A stretch of 64,000 bases of DNA, from positions 1,152,001 through 1,216,000 of the forward strand of contig CBDCYI010000011.1 of the NCBI GenBank assembly GCA_965224085.1. The letters are read 5' to 3'. The notes beneath the pieces are model-generated. The model did not search any database. It saw nothing but the letters and a program-made list of their open reading frames with translations, and was not told the DNA's origin. Source of the stretch: Candidatus Marinacidobacterales bacterium. GTDB taxonomy: Bacteria; Acidobacteriota; Vicinamibacteria; Marinacidobacterales; SMYC01. Below, piece after piece: positions 34,191 through 40,477 of this stretch. The position numbers and the translations under genes are program-made. How positions within the stretch are numbered: the first letter of the stretch is position 1; each line of letters opens with the position of its first letter.

Positions 34191-34619
34191 TTAATCGTCG
34201 TGGTCGACGGGACGTCGCGTCTGTTTCACGCCCGCGCGCCGGCGCTTGGCCTCGAGGCGGCGCGCTCGCGCTCGCGCTCGCGCCGAGACCTTTTTTCGTT
34301 CACGCTTCTTGGGTATCTCGGTGGCGCGGCGGACGAGCTCGACGAGGCGCTCGATGGCGTCTTCACGGTTCCTCGACTGTGATCGAAAGCGGCTCGCTTC
34401 GATCGTCACGACACCCTCGGACGTCATCTTGTTTCCGGCGATTTTGCGAAGCCGCGTGCGCACGTCGTCCGGAAGGGAGGGCGAGCTCTCGGCGTCGAAA
34501 CGAAGCTGTACCGCGGTCGACACTTTGTTGACGTGCTGACCGCCGGGGCCGCCCGCTCGGACGAATTTCAGGTCGATCTCCCACTCGTCCAGCTCGATTT
34601 CATCGGTTACAGGAATCAT
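34191..34619 (-). CDS. arfB: Alternative ribosome rescue factor B (peptidyl-tRNA hydrolase)
   Basis: RAGGPGGQHVNKVSTAVQLRFD GGQ motif, RSQSRNREDA and a basic C-terminal tail. Confidence 0.95.
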   Translation of the reverse strand: MIPVTDEIELDEWEIDLKFVRAGGPGGQHVNKVSTAVQLRFDAESSPSLPDDVRTRLRKIAGNKMTSEGVVTIEASRFRSQSRNREDAIERLVELVRRATEIPKKRERKKVSARARARARRLEAKRRRAGVKQTRRPVDHDD

Positions 34620-34881: not shown

Positions 34882-36000
34882 CTACACCGCAACAAGAGGG
34901 GGTGGTTCAACTCTTCCCGGGCAGAGTTCATACGACGGCGCCGGTTCACCGACTCGGTCGGCTGAACGACGGTACGCGGCCATTTGCTCTTTGCCGAAGT
35001 CCAGCTCCGCCATGTACAAGTTGTGGCAGTGGCACATGAGCCGAATATTCTTCGCGCTACGATCGCCACCGAGTCCGTAAGCGTCGTTGTGATGGTACTC
35101 GAGCCGGTGGCGCTCGGGACATCGTTTGCCGTCAGGAGTGACGAACGTGCATCGCCCGCCATCTCGTGCCCACACGTAACGCTTCACCGCGGCAGCGATG
35201 CCACGCACACCCGGCGACGTGTCGGCGTCTTCGACTTTCGTTCTCGGATGATTCGTCTTCCCGAAACGCTTGGCTTCGAGCCGCTCGAGCTTCTCGCTCA
35301 CGGCCGCGTCGATGACCGAAGCGAGGTCACTGCCGGGAATGAGCGCCTCGAGCCGCTGGAGCTTGTCGCGAAGCGCGGCGCTAGCCGTGAACCGTACTTC
35401 GAAACGCGCCGGCGAAAGTGGCGCGACCGCCGGCCGCTTTTCAGGGATCGCCGGAGCGGCCGGAGGCGGCTCCGGCTCCTCGCGCGTGACAGCTCTGTCC
35501 GGGAAGAGTTCGTCCGACGATTCGGACGATTTGGACCGGGCCTGCCGTTGCGGCCTCTTTCGAATCGTCGGTGGAACATCCGGTTTCGGAGCCAACTCCG
35601 CCACGAGCTCTTCGAGGGCACGTTTGCTCTTGTGAGTGGCTCTTGCCAAGACCTCTTCGCAATTGGCCTCGGTGAGATGCTTTGAGATCACGGTGATACC
35701 ACACAAATGAATGCGACCATCCTCGAGCATCGCGAGGAGCATGGGAAATCTGCGTGACAGCCGAGCGGCGCTGATTCGCCGATAAGCTTCCGCTTCAGAT
35801 AAATGTAAAACGTCCATGCAGTAGCTGAACATCGACGGCGAAGCTTCTTTGGCGTAGAGACGCCGCGCATCGACTTCAGCGATATGCGCGACGAGCACAG
35901 CCTCGCCACGCCGCGACTGTTTCGAGACATCCGCCAGTCGAACAAGAAGCTCGTCATCCGATAATGCCGAGAGCGATTTCAAATCGTCCTTTGTGCTCAT
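34882..36000 (-). CDS. HNH endonuclease with helical (DUF222-like) N-terminus and central RHH-like segment
   Basis: LVAHIAEVDARRLY...SMFSYC...LSEAEAYRRI N-terminus; VRFTASAALRDKLQRL middle; RDGGRCTF..RC...LEYHH...NIRLMCHCHN HNH/Zn domain. Confidence 0.85.
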   Translation of the reverse strand: MSTKDDLKSLSALSDDELLVRLADVSKQSRRGEAVLVAHIAEVDARRLYAKEASPSMFSYCMDVLHLSEAEAYRRISAARLSRRFPMLLAMLEDGRIHLCGITVISKHLTEANCEEVLARATHKSKRALEELVAELAPKPDVPPTIRKRPQRQARSKSSESSDELFPDRAVTREEPEPPPAAPAIPEKRPAVAPLSPARFEVRFTASAALRDKLQRLEALIPGSDLASVIDAAVSEKLERLEAKRFGKTNHPRTKVEDADTSPGVRGIAAAVKRYVWARDGGRCTFVTPDGKRCPERHRLEYHHNDAYGLGGDRSAKNIRLMCHCHNLYMAELDFGKEQMAAYRRSADRVGEPAPSYELCPGRVEPPPLVAV

Positions 36001-36214
36001 AGGTTCTTATAGCACGGACTTTTTCGACGCTCACAGTTCCAGCGTGATCCACACCAACGCGCCGAAACACTTTCGAAGTCTCCTCGAACGAGAGAGCATG
36101 GCTGTCGCTTCGTTGCCGTACACAGAGACCCCCAACGGATCGAGCGCGAGGTCTTTTTGCAAATCGCGTGCAAAAATCCGTCAAGGAGAAAATGGGTCCG
36201 GACCGAACTTTTAT

Positions 36215-36238
36215 TCAACTCTTCCCGGGAAGAGTTGA
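36215..36238. repeat. Perfect 24-bp palindrome upstream of the HNH gene; variants at 34909-34928 and 35491-35510
   Basis: TCAACTCTTCCCGGGAAGAGTTGA; variants AACTCTTCCCGGGCAGAGTT and AGCTCTGTCCGGGAAGAGTT. Confidence 0.9.
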
Positions 36239-36373
36239 CGTTCACTCGGCAGAATCAAAACGATACTGGCGCCCGGAAACGCGGGACTTCAACGTGCTTT
36301 TACGACCTCGATCCGCTCTTCCCGATCGAAGACTGAGAGGCCATAATGTCTCGTTCGGAGAAAGGAGATTCTC

Positions 36374-36856
36374 ATGGTTCCAGCCATCCAGCCCACGGTG
36401 CAGCTGTTCAAAGTCAGCCAGCACCTCTTCCGTCGAGCTCTAAAGGATCTCGAGCCCGAGGCGCTCAAACGCCACCCCGCCGAATCGAACCCCATGATAT
36501 GGCTAGCAGGACATGTGACCCATGCGCGTATCGGCCTATCCAAAATCACTGGCGGCGAGCGGGAGCTTCTATGGCGGGAGCTCTTCGGCCGCCACTCACA
36601 TTTTCGCGACGACGGAGACTATCCAGGTCTCTCGGAGATCCAGAAGGTCTTTGCCGAAGTCACCGATGAGCTGACCGAGCGCTTCGGGAGCCTCACGGAA
36701 GAAGAGTTCGCCAAACCTTCGGGCTACGACGCCCCTATCGAGGATAAAAGCGTCGCAGGCACGATCACGTTTTTCGCCTACCACGAGTCGTACCATGTCG
36801 GTCAGATGGCCTATGTCCGAAAGTGGTTGGGTCGGGGCGGGATTATCGACGGTTGA
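36374..36856 (+). CDS. DinB family protein
   Basis: NPMIWLAGHV...FFAYHESYHVGQM metal-binding His pattern; RBS AAAGGAG. Confidence 0.88.
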   Translation: MVPAIQPTVQLFKVSQHLFRRALKDLEPEALKRHPAESNPMIWLAGHVTHARIGLSKITGGERELLWRELFGRHSHFRDDGDYPGLSEIQKVFAEVTDELTERFGSLTEEEFAKPSGYDAPIEDKSVAGTITFFAYHESYHVGQMAYVRKWLGRGGIIDG

Positions 36857-36858
36857 AG

Positions 36859-36900
36859 TGTCAATAAATTGTTGACAGTAATGATTTTTACCGCTACCAT
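36859..36900 (+). promoter_or_regulatory. Sigma70-type promoter with an overlapping inverted repeat
   Basis: TTGACA (36872-36877), 17-bp spacer, TACCAT (36895-36900); TGTCAA-N7-TTGACA overlaps the -35 box. Confidence 0.75.
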
Positions 36901-36921
36901 GAAGACCAGTTGGTGAAAGAT

Positions 36922-37011
36922 ATGTTGATGCAGCGTCCAAAGGATTGGCTAGGCCAAGGTCGGGGTTTCCGCCCGGATAGTAATGGCCTCGAGGGGGTTG
37001 CTGACTACTGA
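36922..37011 (+). CDS. Putative 29-aa leader peptide
   Basis: MLMQRPKDWLGQGRGFRPDSNGLEGVADY* lies between the promoter and the terminator. Confidence 0.5.
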   Translation: MLMQRPKDWLGQGRGFRPDSNGLEGVADY

Positions 37012-37035
37012 CGTAAAACAGCCAGTCACAAGGGC

Positions 37036-37068
37036 GCCCACCTCGGAAGCAACCGAGGTGGGCTTTTT
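37036..37068 (+). terminator. Intrinsic terminator (attenuator) upstream of the tRNA cluster
   Basis: GCCCACCTCGG-AAGCAA-CCGAGGTGGGC-TTTTT: 11-bp perfect stem plus U tract. Confidence 0.85.
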
Positions 37069-37147
37069 GCATTTAGGGGACTTTTTCTTGAGAAACGCAG
37101 TCGTTCAAACGGTGGAGGTGTGCCCAAGCGGCGCGACTCTTCTCAGA

Positions 37148-37225
37148 GGCTTCGCGGAGCAGCCAGGAGTGCTCGTCCGGTTGTCAGCCGGAAGGTCGCG
37201 GGTTCGAATCCCGCCGGAGCCGCCA
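37148..37225 (+). tRNA. tRNA-Asp(GTC), slightly atypical (C at position 8)
   Basis: Cloverleaf: GGCTTCG/CGGAGCC acceptor, TCCGG-TTGTCAG-CCGGA anticodon arm, GCGGG-TTCGAAT-CCCGC T arm, G73, CCA. Confidence 0.85.
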
Positions 37226-37232
37226 TTTTCGT

Positions 37233-37309
37233 CGGAGTGTAGCGCAGACTGGCAGCGCGCCCGGCTTGGGACCGGGAGGCCGATGGTTCGAATCCATCCG
37301 CTCCGACCA
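37233..37309 (+). tRNA. tRNA-Pro(TGG)
   Basis: CGGAGTG/CGCTCCG acceptor, CCCGG-CTTGGGA-CCGGG anticodon arm, GATGG-TTCGAAT-CCATC T arm, ACCA end. Confidence 0.9.
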
Positions 37310-37322
37310 GTTTGTGTTCGAT

Positions 37323-37397
37323 TGAGGCGTGGTCGATGGGTAAGGCACCCGGTTGTTACCCGGGCTCATGTAGGTGCGAATCCTACCGCGGCTTCCA
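37323..37397 (+). tRNA. Degenerate tRNA with GTT (Asn) anticodon; probable pseudo-tRNA
   Basis: Anticodon arm CCCGG-TTGTTAC-CCGGG and T stem GTAGG/CCTAC are intact, but the T loop is TGCGAAT and the acceptor stem has three mismatches; ends TCCA. Confidence 0.55.
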
Positions 37398-37421
37398 TCG
37401 TAGGAATGCAAGTTGGCTCGA

Positions 37422-37503
37422 GCGGCCGTGGTGTCTACGGTCAGCATGCCTGGATGCCATCCAGTCGGTGTCTTTTTCAGTTCGAATCCGTTCGCTCGCT
37501 CCA
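37422..37503 (+). tRNA. Degenerate tRNA-Gly(GCC); probable pseudo-tRNA
   Basis: GCGGCCG/CGCTCGC acceptor with TCCA end, CTGG-ATGCCAT-CCAG anticodon arm; TTCGAAT loop present but T stem disrupted. Confidence 0.55.
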
Positions 37504-37520
37504 AGAGGCCTGCTAGCTAG

Positions 37521-39202
37521 TACCCGTCCTGACAGGTGTAAGAGGTTGAGAAAAAAGGGGTAATCGCAAATTTAGGGCTAGCCTTCTGAGGGAGTGTCGT
37601 TTAGTATCGAGTCGACAAAAACGCAGATTCTAAACGACTTAACTCCAAAGGAGACCAGCCCTAAATGCGAAAAACGATCAACCCACAACCAAGCCTTCGC
37701 GAGCCCTGGCTGGAGCTGGAGCACGCACGCGAACTCGAAACGATATCATCGCTGCTCGATGCCCATCCTAAGCTCAATGAGCTGGTACTGCAAGACCTGA
37801 GGTCGGTCACCCCATCGGCAGGGAGCGATGTTGGTCGTGGGGGAATGAGCGCGGAGCAGGTTCTCCGGGCGTTGTTGGTCAAGCAGCTGAATCAGTTCAC
37901 CTATCGGGAGCTGGCGTTTCACTTGGCAGACTCTCGAAGCTATCGGACGTTTTGCCAGCTCGGCATCATAGAGCCGAGCCCGTCGAAGTCGACCCTAGCA
38001 GCAAACATCAAAGCCGTGAAGTTCGAAACGCTGGAGAAAATCAACCGAGAGCTGGTGAGTGTTGCCGAGAAGACCGCGATCGAAAAAGGAAGAAAAGTAC
38101 GAGTGGACTGCACGGTAGTGGAGTCGAATATTCATTCTCCTACGGACTCCGAGCTTCTTTATGACTGCGTCCGAGTTCTCACTCGCCTCATGTGCCGAAC
38201 TCGCGAACTGCTGGGTACAGTAGTGGTCTTCGGCAATCGAACGCGTCGAGCGAAGAGACGTCGACTGGGAGTTCTAAACGCGAAGGATAAGGAACAAAGG
38301 CGTCGCGTCTATCGAGATCTACTGAAGGTGTCGGAAGAAACCTATCGCTCCGCTCAACGCGTTGCAGACCAGTTGGACGAGTCCGGCTTGACCGAGCCGG
38401 TGAAGCGAGCGAGTGCGGAGAAGATCGCCGCGGATTTTAAGCACTTTCTCGTCCTCACCGAAAAAGTCATCAACCAAACTCGGCGTAGAGTGATTGATGA
38501 AGAGCGTGTGCCTGCGGAGGAAAAGGTCGTTTCGATCTTCGAAGAACACACCGACATTATTCGCAAAGACCGGCGCGAGACTCTCTACGGTCACAAGGTG
38601 TGTTTGACTGGTGGCTCGTCCTCGATGATTTTGGATTGCGTGATCTTGGATGGGAATCCGTCCGATTCAACTCTCGCGGAAACCATGATCGACCGTCAAG
38701 TCGAACTCTACGAACGGGCCCCGCGCCAGGTTGCCTACGATGGCGCGTTTTCTTCAAAGGCAAACTTGGAAGCCATCAAAGGCAAGGGAGTTGAAGATGT
38801 TGCCTTTACCAAGGCTCACTTCGCGGTGACCGATATGGTCAAGAGTTCCTGGGTCTATCAACGCCTACGGCGATTTCGCTGCGGAATCGAAGGCGTCATT
38901 TCGTTCTTGAAACGAGTCTTTGGTCTCGACCGATGCACATGGCGCTCATTGCCTTCTTTCAAATCCTACGTATGGAGTTCCATCATCACCTGCAACCTGT
39001 TGGTAATGGCAAGGCACCTATTACGATAATAATGATTGCTCTTACTGCGTTTATAGCCATGGATTGCTGACGATTCGCCTCTCGTTTCGTCCAAGATTTT
39101 CATTCGCTTCCGAGCCTACGAGGTGCCGACTGAAAACGTATAATACCCACATCTTCGATAGGCCTCTCGTACACCACAAGTTATGGTGTTTCTGGACAGG
39201 AA
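37521..39202 (+). mobile_element. ISNCY/IS5-like insertion sequence, complete
   Basis: Imperfect terminal IRs (TACCCGTCCTGACA / TTCCTGTCCAGAAA on the opposite strand); CTAGCTAG on both flanks; the right end is confirmed by the second copy at 46275. Confidence 0.85.
37665..39029 (+). CDS. ISNCY-family DDE transposase
   Basis: GRGGMSAEQVLRAL, RVDCTVVESNIHSPTDS, YGHKV, YDGAF and RFRCGIEGVISFLKR motifs. Confidence 0.92.
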   Translation: MRKTINPQPSLREPWLELEHARELETISSLLDAHPKLNELVLQDLRSVTPSAGSDVGRGGMSAEQVLRALLVKQLNQFTYRELAFHLADSRSYRTFCQLGIIEPSPSKSTLAANIKAVKFETLEKINRELVSVAEKTAIEKGRKVRVDCTVVESNIHSPTDSELLYDCVRVLTRLMCRTRELLGTVVVFGNRTRRAKRRRLGVLNAKDKEQRRRVYRDLLKVSEETYRSAQRVADQLDESGLTEPVKRASAEKIAADFKHFLVLTEKVINQTRRRVIDEERVPAEEKVVSIFEEHTDIIRKDRRETLYGHKVCLTGGSSSMILDCVILDGNPSDSTLAETMIDRQVELYERAPRQVAYDGAFSSKANLEAIKGKGVEDVAFTKAHFAVTDMVKSSWVYQRLRRFRCGIEGVISFLKRVFGLDRCTWRSLPSFKSYVWSSIITCNLLVMARHLLR

Positions 39203-39210
39203 CTAGCTAG

Positions 39211-40477
39211 AGGCTGTTGCAAAAGCCCGTTTAGCGTCAAGGCGTTCATTTGTTTGAGCACAGGAGTGAGGCCGTTGGTTGTACTGCTTGTTAGGAACGC
39301 GCCTGTCGGGCACGGTCGAGCGTATTTTGCTTGTTGATGTCCGCGAGTTCTCGCAGACAATCCTGCAAGCTCTGCCATGCGGCGACGCCTTCGCGGATAC
39401 GCTTGTGTGCGGCTTGGGGCACATAGTAGCCGGTAGTCTTGCCGTGCTTGCCACGAAAATTGATATAGAGGTGAGGGCCATGCTTTGGCCCGGGCCCGTG
39501 GCACCGACAAGTGGGCGTACCGCAGGTACGATAGGTTTCGGAGGGTGTGCCGAAGATCGCCCTTCGCGCATATTGTTGAATCTGTTGTAGGAGCTGGTCC
39601 CGACGTTTACGTGGATCGGAATGAAGGGTTCGGCATTTTCGCTGTCCTTTCTTCGCCGCTTGACTCGAGCGATCGATATGAGGTTTTGGCTGATAACGCA
39701 CCACCCGACGTAACGCTTGAATCCTCGGTCGCCCTTGTAGGTGGCGCGAAGCATAGCGAAGCGGTGCTTGAGGGTGCTGATGCGGGACTCGACGCCCCCG
39801 CGCCACTTGAGGGCTCGACGGAACCAGCGCTTTTTTTGAACCTTGGCTCGTTTTTTCGAGGGTCGTCCTCGAGCCGGCAACACCACTTTCTTTACACCGA
39901 GATCTATGGCCTTGCGTTCATTGTCTGCCGAAAAGAATCCGCGGTCAGCGGTCGCCATCTCCGGCGCACGAGCGAACTGTTTTTTGTGTTGCTCCAGCGC
40001 GGGCATCCACTGAGTTTGGTCCGCCGGATTGCCTGCGGCAACTTCGTAGTGGCTAACAATGCCGTTCTCCACCTCATCAATTCGCACGAGTCGTCCAAAC
40101 TCGGTCGGCTTCCATGTTTTGCCTTTTCGGATCACGGCCGTATGCTCCTCGAACAGGCTGACGATCTTGTCCGGATGGTGACGATGGCCCCCTAAAACAC
40201 GGGCCTTTGTCTGAGCTAACACCTTTTTGCACAGTGGCAGATAATGTTCGAGTTGGCTCTGATTGCTTATGATGCTCACCAGCGAACCCACGACCGGAAG
40301 CTTTCCGCTCTTGAGCGACTGAATAACCTCGTCGGCTTGCCGGACCACGCTGCGCGCCGTGCCCATGAGCTTGCGATAACTTTGCTTGAACTTGACTTGG
40401 CTCGATTCGGTGAACGACTTGCTGGCGCGGTCGATCTCAAGCTGCCTGTTTTTCGTTGATCGGCTGTGGTCCACCAC
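39211..40477 (-). mobile_element. Second, 5'-truncated ISNCY/IS5-like element (transposase remnant plus DUF6788-like accessory gene)
   Basis: Transposase motifs DKIVSLFEEHT.VIRKGK..KPTEFG, ADRGF and WRGGVESRISTLKH; end sequence GGGCTTTTGCAACAGCCT abuts CTAG; N-terminus missing. Confidence 0.8.
39291..39636 (-). pseudogene. DUF6788-like Zn-binding accessory protein, 5' end frameshifted
   Basis: GTPSETYRTCGTPTCRCHGPGPKHGPHLY...YVP motif; the ATG at 39636 is out of frame with this body. Confidence 0.6.

Follow-up and report, generated by a model that had tools for sequence, protein, structure and literature searches.

A candidate leader-peptide attenuator in front of a terminator-gated cassette of spare tRNA genes in Acidobacteriota

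Attenuators of the Escherichia coli trpL, hisL and pheL type combine a leader open reading frame (ORF) with RNA segments that pair as 1:2, 2:3 and 3:4, the peptide itself being unimportant. The targets of T-boxes are aminoacyl-tRNA synthetase and amino-acid genes rather than the genes of transfer RNAs (tRNAs). Control of bacterial tRNA genes has mostly been described at the promoter, as growth-rate control or, in cyanobacteria, through TrcR. The locus analysed here lies in a stretch of 64,000 nucleotides (nt), hereafter the window, from a Candidatus Marinacidobacterales bacterium (GenBank assembly GCA_965224085.1, contig CBDCYI010000011.1, positions 1,152,001 to 1,216,000, forward strand). Beginning at window position 36859, it consists of a promoter, a leader RNA, an intrinsic terminator and an array of spare tRNA genes. 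A conserved tRNA cassette gated by a terminator is well supported at this locus. A ribosome-coupled (leader-peptide) attenuator gating the spare tRNAs is a tentative reading, to which we assign a probability of about 0.4, with the ribosome as a plausible sensor. No description of an attenuator, that is, a terminator/antiterminator leader, controlling tRNA genes was found in the literature searched.

By analogy, the layout of the leader comes closest to the trp type, its possible signal to the upstream ORF (uORF) attenuator of mycobacterial whiB7, and its cargo to the trn operon of Anabaena. Like the trpL, hisL and pheL leaders, it has a short candidate leader ORF, a possible set of four segments and a stop codon placed so that a terminating ribosome would cover segment 2; unlike them, it stands before tRNA genes rather than biosynthetic enzymes, has no run of a single codon and belongs to an apparently mobile cassette. 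The absence of a run of one amino acid had been noted correctly in the original prediction, an earlier reading of this DNA. A T-box shares with the leader the mutually exclusive terminator and antiterminator and the link to tRNA biology, whereas the antiterminator of the cassette lacks, by eye, the conserved UGGN bulge, and the T-box model RF00230 finds no match in 36000–38000 at expectation values (E) up to 10.

According to PMC10274678, stalling on the whiB7 uORF is believed to cause antitermination, the uORF is variable in sequence between species and enriched in alanine, and whiB7 responds to many translation insults, including loss of tRNAs and of tRNA synthetases. The whiB7 attenuator controls a transcription factor, whereas the cassette leader precedes tRNAs and has at most a weak enrichment of codons read by the array. 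The cryptic trn operon (L-array) of Anabaena sp. PCC 7120 (PMC8421152 and PMC10272220) carries 26 genes on a megaplasmid, holds spare tRNAs beside a full housekeeping set, is silent by default and is bound by the DNA-binding repressor TrcR at a sigma-70-type promoter with repeats over its −10 box. In cyanobacteria, L-arrays of the TrcR type reach 43 genes and carry, across the −10 box and start site, repeats bound by the repressor. The present cassette resembles the Anabaena operon in its spare tRNAs, in its sigma-70-type promoter with −10 repeats and in the idea of extra tRNAs under translational stress, and differs in holding three to five tRNAs and in having a terminator/antiterminator leader between promoter and tRNAs. 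The terms terminator, attenuat* and leader do not occur in either Anabaena paper (PMC8421152, PMC10272220).

The promoter–leader–terminator unit and its tRNA genes

Comparison by blastn with 61 relatives recovers the whole block in a genome of the same genus (G003, 79% identity over 36859–37389) and, in pieces, in a genome from another genus of the family (G012). The promoter–leader–terminator–tRNA block is thus present in 3 of 19 family genomes, spanning two genera, and the search for similar leaders before tRNA arrays suggested in the original prediction yields these two further copies. The control region is made up of the following elements, numbered along the window.

36859–36877, forward: inverted repeat of TGTCAA (36859–36864), 7 nt and TTGACA (36872–36877) over the −35 box, at the left edge of the conserved block (sequence reading, blastn)
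36872–36900, forward: sigma-70-type promoter, TTGACA (36872–36877), 17-nt spacer and TACCAT (36895–36900), matching the consensus at 10 of 12 positions (promoter scan, alignment of three loci)
36878–36900, forward, with its counterparts at L023 4085–4107 (G003) and L022 2079–2101 (G012): promoter spacer and −10 region with a palindrome and direct repeats (sequence reading)
36905–37068, forward: predicted leader transcript of about 164 nt, its 5' end placed from the −10 box
36912–36916, forward: Shine-Dalgarno-like (SD-like) GGUGA, 5 nt upstream of the AUG; GGUGA in G003, GGUAA in G012
36922–37011, forward: leader ORF of 29 codons plus TGA (ATG at 36922, TGA at 37009–37011; ORF reading), its stop in the 5' half of the antiterminator
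36930–36938, forward: segment 1, GCAGCGUCC, candidate anti-antiterminator over ORF codons 3–6 (folding)
36988–37008, forward: segment 2, CUCGAGGGGGUUGCUGACUAC, 5' strand of the antiterminator (alignment of three loci)
36989–37045, forward: antiterminator hairpin of segment 2 and the 5' arm of the terminator (folding)
37036–37068, forward: intrinsic terminator with an 11-base-pair (bp) stem, 6-nt loop and U5 (terminator scan)
37069–37147, forward: spacer kept with G003 and absent in G012, with no promoter-like site (promoter scan, alignment, blastn)

The original prediction had placed here a promoter with an inverted repeat over its −35 box, a 29-codon ORF and an 11-bp terminator with a U tract before the tRNAs, and each of them lies where it was predicted. 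The promoter is of identical quality (10/12 matches) at the window, G003 and G012 loci, its spacer is nearly invariant in the alignment, and the inverted repeat is kept in G003 and to 5/6 in G012. A consensus scan of 36000–38000 returns two promoter-like sites, where 50 shuffles average 0.7.

The terminator stem (37036–37063) contains nine G-C pairs out of 11, is followed by TTTTT and is near-invariant across the three loci, with hairpin energies of −23.5 (window), −18.7 (G003) and −22.6 kcal/mol (G012). At each locus the consensus scan identifies this promoter and this terminator, a conserved pair, as the sole ones upstream of the tRNAs, and finds no promoter-like site between terminator and tRNAs in the window, G003 or G012. 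A downstream promoter belonging to the tRNAs themselves, a possibility raised in the original prediction, is accordingly seen in none of the three copies. The gap between the end of the G012 terminator stem (L022 2296) and the first base of the first tRNA (2308) is only 11 nt, too short to hold a promoter. As read from the sequence, the tRNA array is either silent or made by transcription through the terminator, and production of the spare tRNAs probably depends on the switch allowing transcription to continue. The spacer of about 80 nt at 37069–37147 holds a small hairpin (GUGCC/GGCGC, and GUGCC/GGCAC in G003) and has no Rfam match as a tRNA at E up to 10.

Homology begins at 36859 with G003 and at 36866 with G012, the former position lying just after the stop codon of an upstream DinB-family gene. 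Flanking genes differ at all three loci, with no conserved neighbouring protein gene, and the upstream flank of G003 maps to a different contig of the window genome. Between the two genera the promoter, segment 2 and the terminator are almost invariant, while the intervening sequence is about 60% identical. Taken from these boundaries, the block appears to be a small, self-contained tRNA cassette of about 700 nt that moves horizontally.

Among the matches of all further searches, no new true copy of the cassette leader came up. With the window leader as query, blastn in the 61 relatives and 19 family genomes returns only G003 and G012; with the G012 leader, new matches in 55 order genomes are confined to a 25-nt piece of an insertion sequence (IS) discussed below. 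A gapped motif allowing at most one mismatch gives 28 matches in 401 class genomes, of which 3 are real, and a covariance model of segment 2 and terminator gives, in the 55 order genomes, three strong matches and four weak ones (E 0.009–0.09), the weak ones lacking a tRNA. In a collection of genome contigs, none is real among the matches listed for the core motif (at least 80 loci), the promoter and terminator motifs each find 0 loci, the gapped motif finds 30 loci of which none is real, and a motif of the array tRNA-Gln finds one locus, a truncated array without leader. Metagenome contigs contribute 22 loci, none real, and two scans of viral contigs give 0 and 0; all of these contig collections may omit genomes close to that of the window.

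The same data bear on a different reading, in which the unit is a stand-alone small RNA (sRNA) gene that travels with the cassette, the tRNAs being reached by leak-through or never and the antiterminator fold being a by-product. Such a gene would account for a complete promoter–terminator unit of about 164–195 nt whose whole-leader fold is stable (z of −2.9, −3.5 and −2.6 in the three copies), for an antiterminator complementarity within the chance range in two of three copies, and for tRNAs that look poorly maintained. It is nevertheless an unlikely explanation: the leader is tied to a tRNA array in 3/3 copies, is single-copy in its own genome and is absent from the other 16 family genomes, it matches no known sRNA family in Rfam at E up to 10, and its antiterminator persists across three copies whose distal sequences differ. 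Moreover, the terminator of G012 abuts the tRNA, so that under this reading the array would have no transcription at all.

A second layer of control at the promoter is conceivable. The spacer palindrome is of 4 bp, GTAA-N6-TTAC, both arms of which are altered in G012 to give GTAG-N6-CTAC, while 6-nt direct repeats lie over the −10 box (TACCGC TACCAT / TTACCG TTACCA / CTACCG CTACTA). These elements may form an operator. Because the spacer is almost invariant and carries both a palindrome and direct repeats over the −10 box, a promoter repressor acting on top of the leader switch, as at the Anabaena trn operon, is possible. A TrcR site was considered and dropped, since the G012 promoter matches 7/8 of the published motif by eye while those of the window and G003 mismatch.

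Alternative leader folds and translation of the leader

Segment 2 is the most conserved block of the leader, with 17/21 positions invariant in the three loci, and contains the G-rich block CUCG-N-GGGGG-N-UGC. Folded alone, the antiterminator region forms a single 57-nt hairpin whose base is built on the 5' arm of the terminator. The mutually exclusive antiterminator of the original prediction can be folded in silico in all three homologous copies, and it is energetically competitive: −21.0 (window), −22.8 (G003) and −27.7 kcal/mol (G012), against the terminator values of −23.5, −18.7 and −22.6 kcal/mol. Its z values are −2.26, −2.87 and −1.66, with 3, 3 and 17 of 200 shuffles equally stable, in the same order. 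The distal helices differ in sequence at each locus and pairing is still possible. When the leader is folded before the 3' arm of the terminator emerges, the 5' arm in the window and G012 takes the G-rich block as its partner; in G003 this block remains paired with an upstream segment. The antiterminator pairing carries weight because the three copies share it at homologous positions and because both partners are near-invariant.

Upstream, segment 1 supplies a candidate competitor for segment 2. A helix between segments 1 and 2 is part of the minimum-energy fold of 36922–37003, and the same helix forms in G003. In G012 another upstream stretch pairs beside segment 2 (CGAGAC with GUCUCG).

These elements suggest the following mechanism for a ribosome-coupled attenuator. 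A strong sigma-70 promoter, possibly repressor-controlled through its spacer, would start a leader of about 164 nt that ends in an efficient-looking terminator directly before promoterless spare tRNAs. The leader would be laid out in four segments, with a 1:2 anti-antiterminator, an antiterminator made of segment 2 and the 5' arm of the terminator, and the terminator itself. On a ribosome-free leader, segment 1 would hold segment 2, the terminator would form and transcription would stop; a ribosome that reaches the stop codon would mask segment 2, with the same outcome. A ribosome lagging or stalled over segment 1 would instead free segment 2, allowing the antiterminator to form and transcription to read through into the tRNAs. 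Translation of the ORF, the kinetic choice of structure and the signal are the presumed parts of this scheme, the signal possibly being slow decoding, either in general or of codons read by the array tRNAs.

Several features of the ORF are consistent with translation. Its AUG is nt 18 of the aligned RNA, at an equal distance from the −10 box in 3/3 loci, and the SD-like motif forms a duplex with the anti-SD core of −6.2 (window), −5.8 (G003) and −4.9 kcal/mol (G012), computed with an assumed core sequence rather than one taken from the host genome; the search pattern for the 16S 3' end had no match in the assembly. In G003 the ORF has 35 codons, its frame being retained despite 12 extra nt. 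The G012 ORF at present has 12 codons. Its leader carries, at L022 2151–2175, 25 nt that also occur, without mismatch, 12 nt from the terminus of an IS with 14 copies in G010, one in G002 and one elsewhere in G012. This 25-mer looks like an insertion scar that shortened the leader ORF to 12 codons. Minus the 25 nt, the G012 leader aligns well with those of the window and G003, and its AUG is in frame with 32 codons that end in the antiterminator.

The distance from the AUG to CUCG is 66 nt in the window, 78 nt in G003 and 97 nt in G012, or 72 nt in G012 minus the 25-mer. The distance from the stop to the terminator stem is 24, 18 and 22 nt, the G012 value being counted with the IS-derived 25 nt removed, and the stop falls in the 5' half or the loop of the antiterminator. 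As to the conservation of the ORF sought in the original prediction, G003 retains both the start and the end within the antiterminator, G012 does so only once the 25-mer is taken out, and the peptide is not conserved. Between window and G003, roughly 10 substitutions change an amino acid and one is silent, as counted by eye, which points to a peptide sequence that is not as such under selection.

A number of observations weigh against the ribosome-coupled reading. The unconserved peptide is compatible with a leader peptide and equally with a non-coding RNA. The strength of the SD-like duplexes is reached at 11–20% of random genome positions (−6 kcal/mol by 10.8% of 3000), and an open frame of the observed length after the AUG arises in 481, 197 and 260 of 2000 shuffles, that is, in 24% (window), 10% (G003) and 13% (G012). 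The present ORF of G012 stops about 105 nt short of the terminator; the in-frame reading holds only on the unprovable assumption that the 25-mer is purely inserted sequence, and with the 25-mer removed the other two frames are nearly as open.

The RNA folds add to this side of the balance. The gain from pairing the 5' arm is matched by 77/300 shuffled leaders in the window and 192/300 in G003, as against 2/300 in G012, and complementarity between leader and 5' arm alone is not unusual in two of the three copies. Covariation, the check proposed in the original prediction, is not seen between segment 2 and the terminator arm among the three loci; both are invariant but for one pair-weakening change in G012. 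In the window, folding the whole domain gives no gain in stability over shuffles (z −0.66), and the modelled pairing of segments 1 and 2 is not clearly conserved in G012. Finally, the copies number only three, two of them close (79% identity), and the tRNAs decay differently in each genome; the whole cassette may be drifting.

Part of this evidence is shared by a switch that works independently of translation, or by a simply leaky terminator, with the ORF incidental in either case. A protein, a small ligand or an RNA such as a tRNA would then stabilise the segment 1–2 helix or the antiterminator, whereas a leaky terminator would keep the spare tRNAs at a low constitutive level. Conservation of segment 2 and of the terminator stem goes far beyond what pairing requires, which suggests sequence-specific recognition, and the weak ORF statistics, the ORF cut to 12 codons in G012 beside an intact promoter, segment 2 and terminator, and internal hairpins that vary in length, as those of structured RNAs do, point the same way. 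On the other hand, the leader (36900–37070) matches no family among the Rfam 15 covariance models, T-box included, at E up to 10; the flanks, differing at the three loci, offer no conserved protein gene as a partner; and between segments 1 and 2 lies no conserved core, the enclosed stretch in the window not exceeding shuffles in stability. A conserved AUG with an SD-like motif at a fixed position would also go unexplained. We consider translation-independent control somewhat unlikely on these grounds.

The tRNA array, its decay and its surroundings

The host genome contains 57 tRNA genes and one transfer-messenger RNA. Downstream of the leader, the array and the element that truncates it comprise the following.

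37148–37225, forward: spare tRNA-Asp(GTC), divergent from the housekeeping copy (Rfam, 49.6 bits)
37233–37309, forward: spare tRNA-Pro(TGG) (Rfam, 64.9 bits)
37325–37397, forward: chimeric pseudo-tRNA, called 'Asn-GTT' (Rfam, 35.0 bits; three non-standard acceptor pairs)
37422–37517, forward: degenerate tRNA-like stretch followed by the start of a further tRNA (Rfam, 16.3 bits, E 5.9; by eye)
37518–39029, forward: multi-copy IS that truncates the array and lies outside the module (DDE transposase at 37665–39029)

The genome encodes its housekeeping Asp-GTC, Pro-TGG and Asn-GTT tRNAs at other sites, and the array genes are strongly divergent second copies of those genes. The description of the array as spare tRNA genes in the original prediction is borne out in this respect, but the window array is partly broken. 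The gene at 37325–37397 joins the 5' part of the array tRNA-Asn to the 3' part of the array tRNA-Gln, as seen from two overlapping blastn pieces against G003; its acceptor stem is mispaired because of this fusion, which a deletion running from one T arm to the other apparently produced. In the window, the further tRNA (Arg-GCG in G003) is interrupted by the IS at 37518, whose transposase has the Pfam domains DUF772 and DDE_Tnp_1. Contig depth rises about 100-fold at 37518 in four runs, and contigs from the same runs are identical to the window over 36700–37540, with no variation.

The array content is Asp-Pro-Asn-Gln-Arg(GCG) in G003 and Asn-Gln-Trp-Glu in G012, and G001 has only a truncated array without a leader. 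In G003 the tRNA-Asp reads C33 and a mispaired 7:66. Taken together with the chimeric tRNA and the IS cut of the window, the IS-derived 25-mer in the G012 leader and the leaderless array of G001, this decay would fit an acquired cassette that is eroding in all three genomes, its leader without function in the host. Such a relic is nonetheless a very improbable explanation, given that promoter, segment 2 and terminator are almost invariant beside intervening sequence of about 60% identity, which argues for continued selection on the control region.

The tRNA-Arg with anticodon GCG is found in the arrays of G003 (L023 4758–4832) and G001 (L004 395–469); bacteria are not normally known to use this anticodon, ACG/ICG reading the corresponding codons. 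In a sister family (L158–L163), the single housekeeping tRNA-Asn shares 78–84% identity over 51 nt with the array tRNA-Asn, more than the host's own tRNA-Asn does. The sister-family matches were considered as possible arrays and rejected as ordinary stand-alone genes. The tRNA sequences hint that the cassette tRNAs derive from another lineage.

Mobile DNA abounds around the cassette. Another DDE-domain transposase (39203–40477, reverse strand) adjoins the IS at 37518, and a DUF222 protein with an HNH-like C-terminus is encoded at 34882–36000 (reverse strand). Some 2.3 kilobases upstream and outside the conserved module, 34191–34619 (reverse strand) encodes a protein of 142 residues with an RF-1 domain and a GGQ motif, the size and motif of which we take to be those of the ribosome-rescue factor ArfB.

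Leader codons and the possible signal

Codons read by the array tRNAs make up 10/28 of the leader codons in the window (P 0.054) and 10/34 in G003 (P 0.16). In G012 the count is 2/11 in the present ORF (P 0.47) and 8/31 minus the 25-mer (P 0.057), and a contrast table of array-specific codons between window and G012 gives a one-sided Fisher P of 0.07. Specifically, codons 4–8 of the window ORF (Gln, Arg-CGU, Pro, Lys and Asp) lie over segment 1, and 4/5 of them are read by array tRNAs. The match between leader codons and array is a weak trend, post hoc and non-significant; if real, it would favour a sensor more specific than one of general translation stress.

Extended to its fullest form, this trend would make the leader a codon-matched sensor of tRNA shortage, with the cassette replacing exactly the tRNA species that are missing, a reading we consider quite improbable. 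The window ORF would place Gln, Arg-CGY, Pro and Asp codons over segment 1, and the G012 ORF would use Trp, Glu, Gln and Asn codons, for which its array holds the tRNAs. Host tRNAs depleted or cut, for example by anticodon nucleases, would then stall the ribosome and shift the leader into the antiterminator. Were this codon-sensing form correct, the cassette would act, within a bacterial chromosome, as a mobile repair kit for tRNAs that regulates itself.

At about 700 nt, the cassette is a compact, self-contained unit kept in three genomes, which makes a direct test by reporter fusion feasible. If the ribosome-coupled attenuator holds true, the leader would let decoding speed feed back on tRNA supply.

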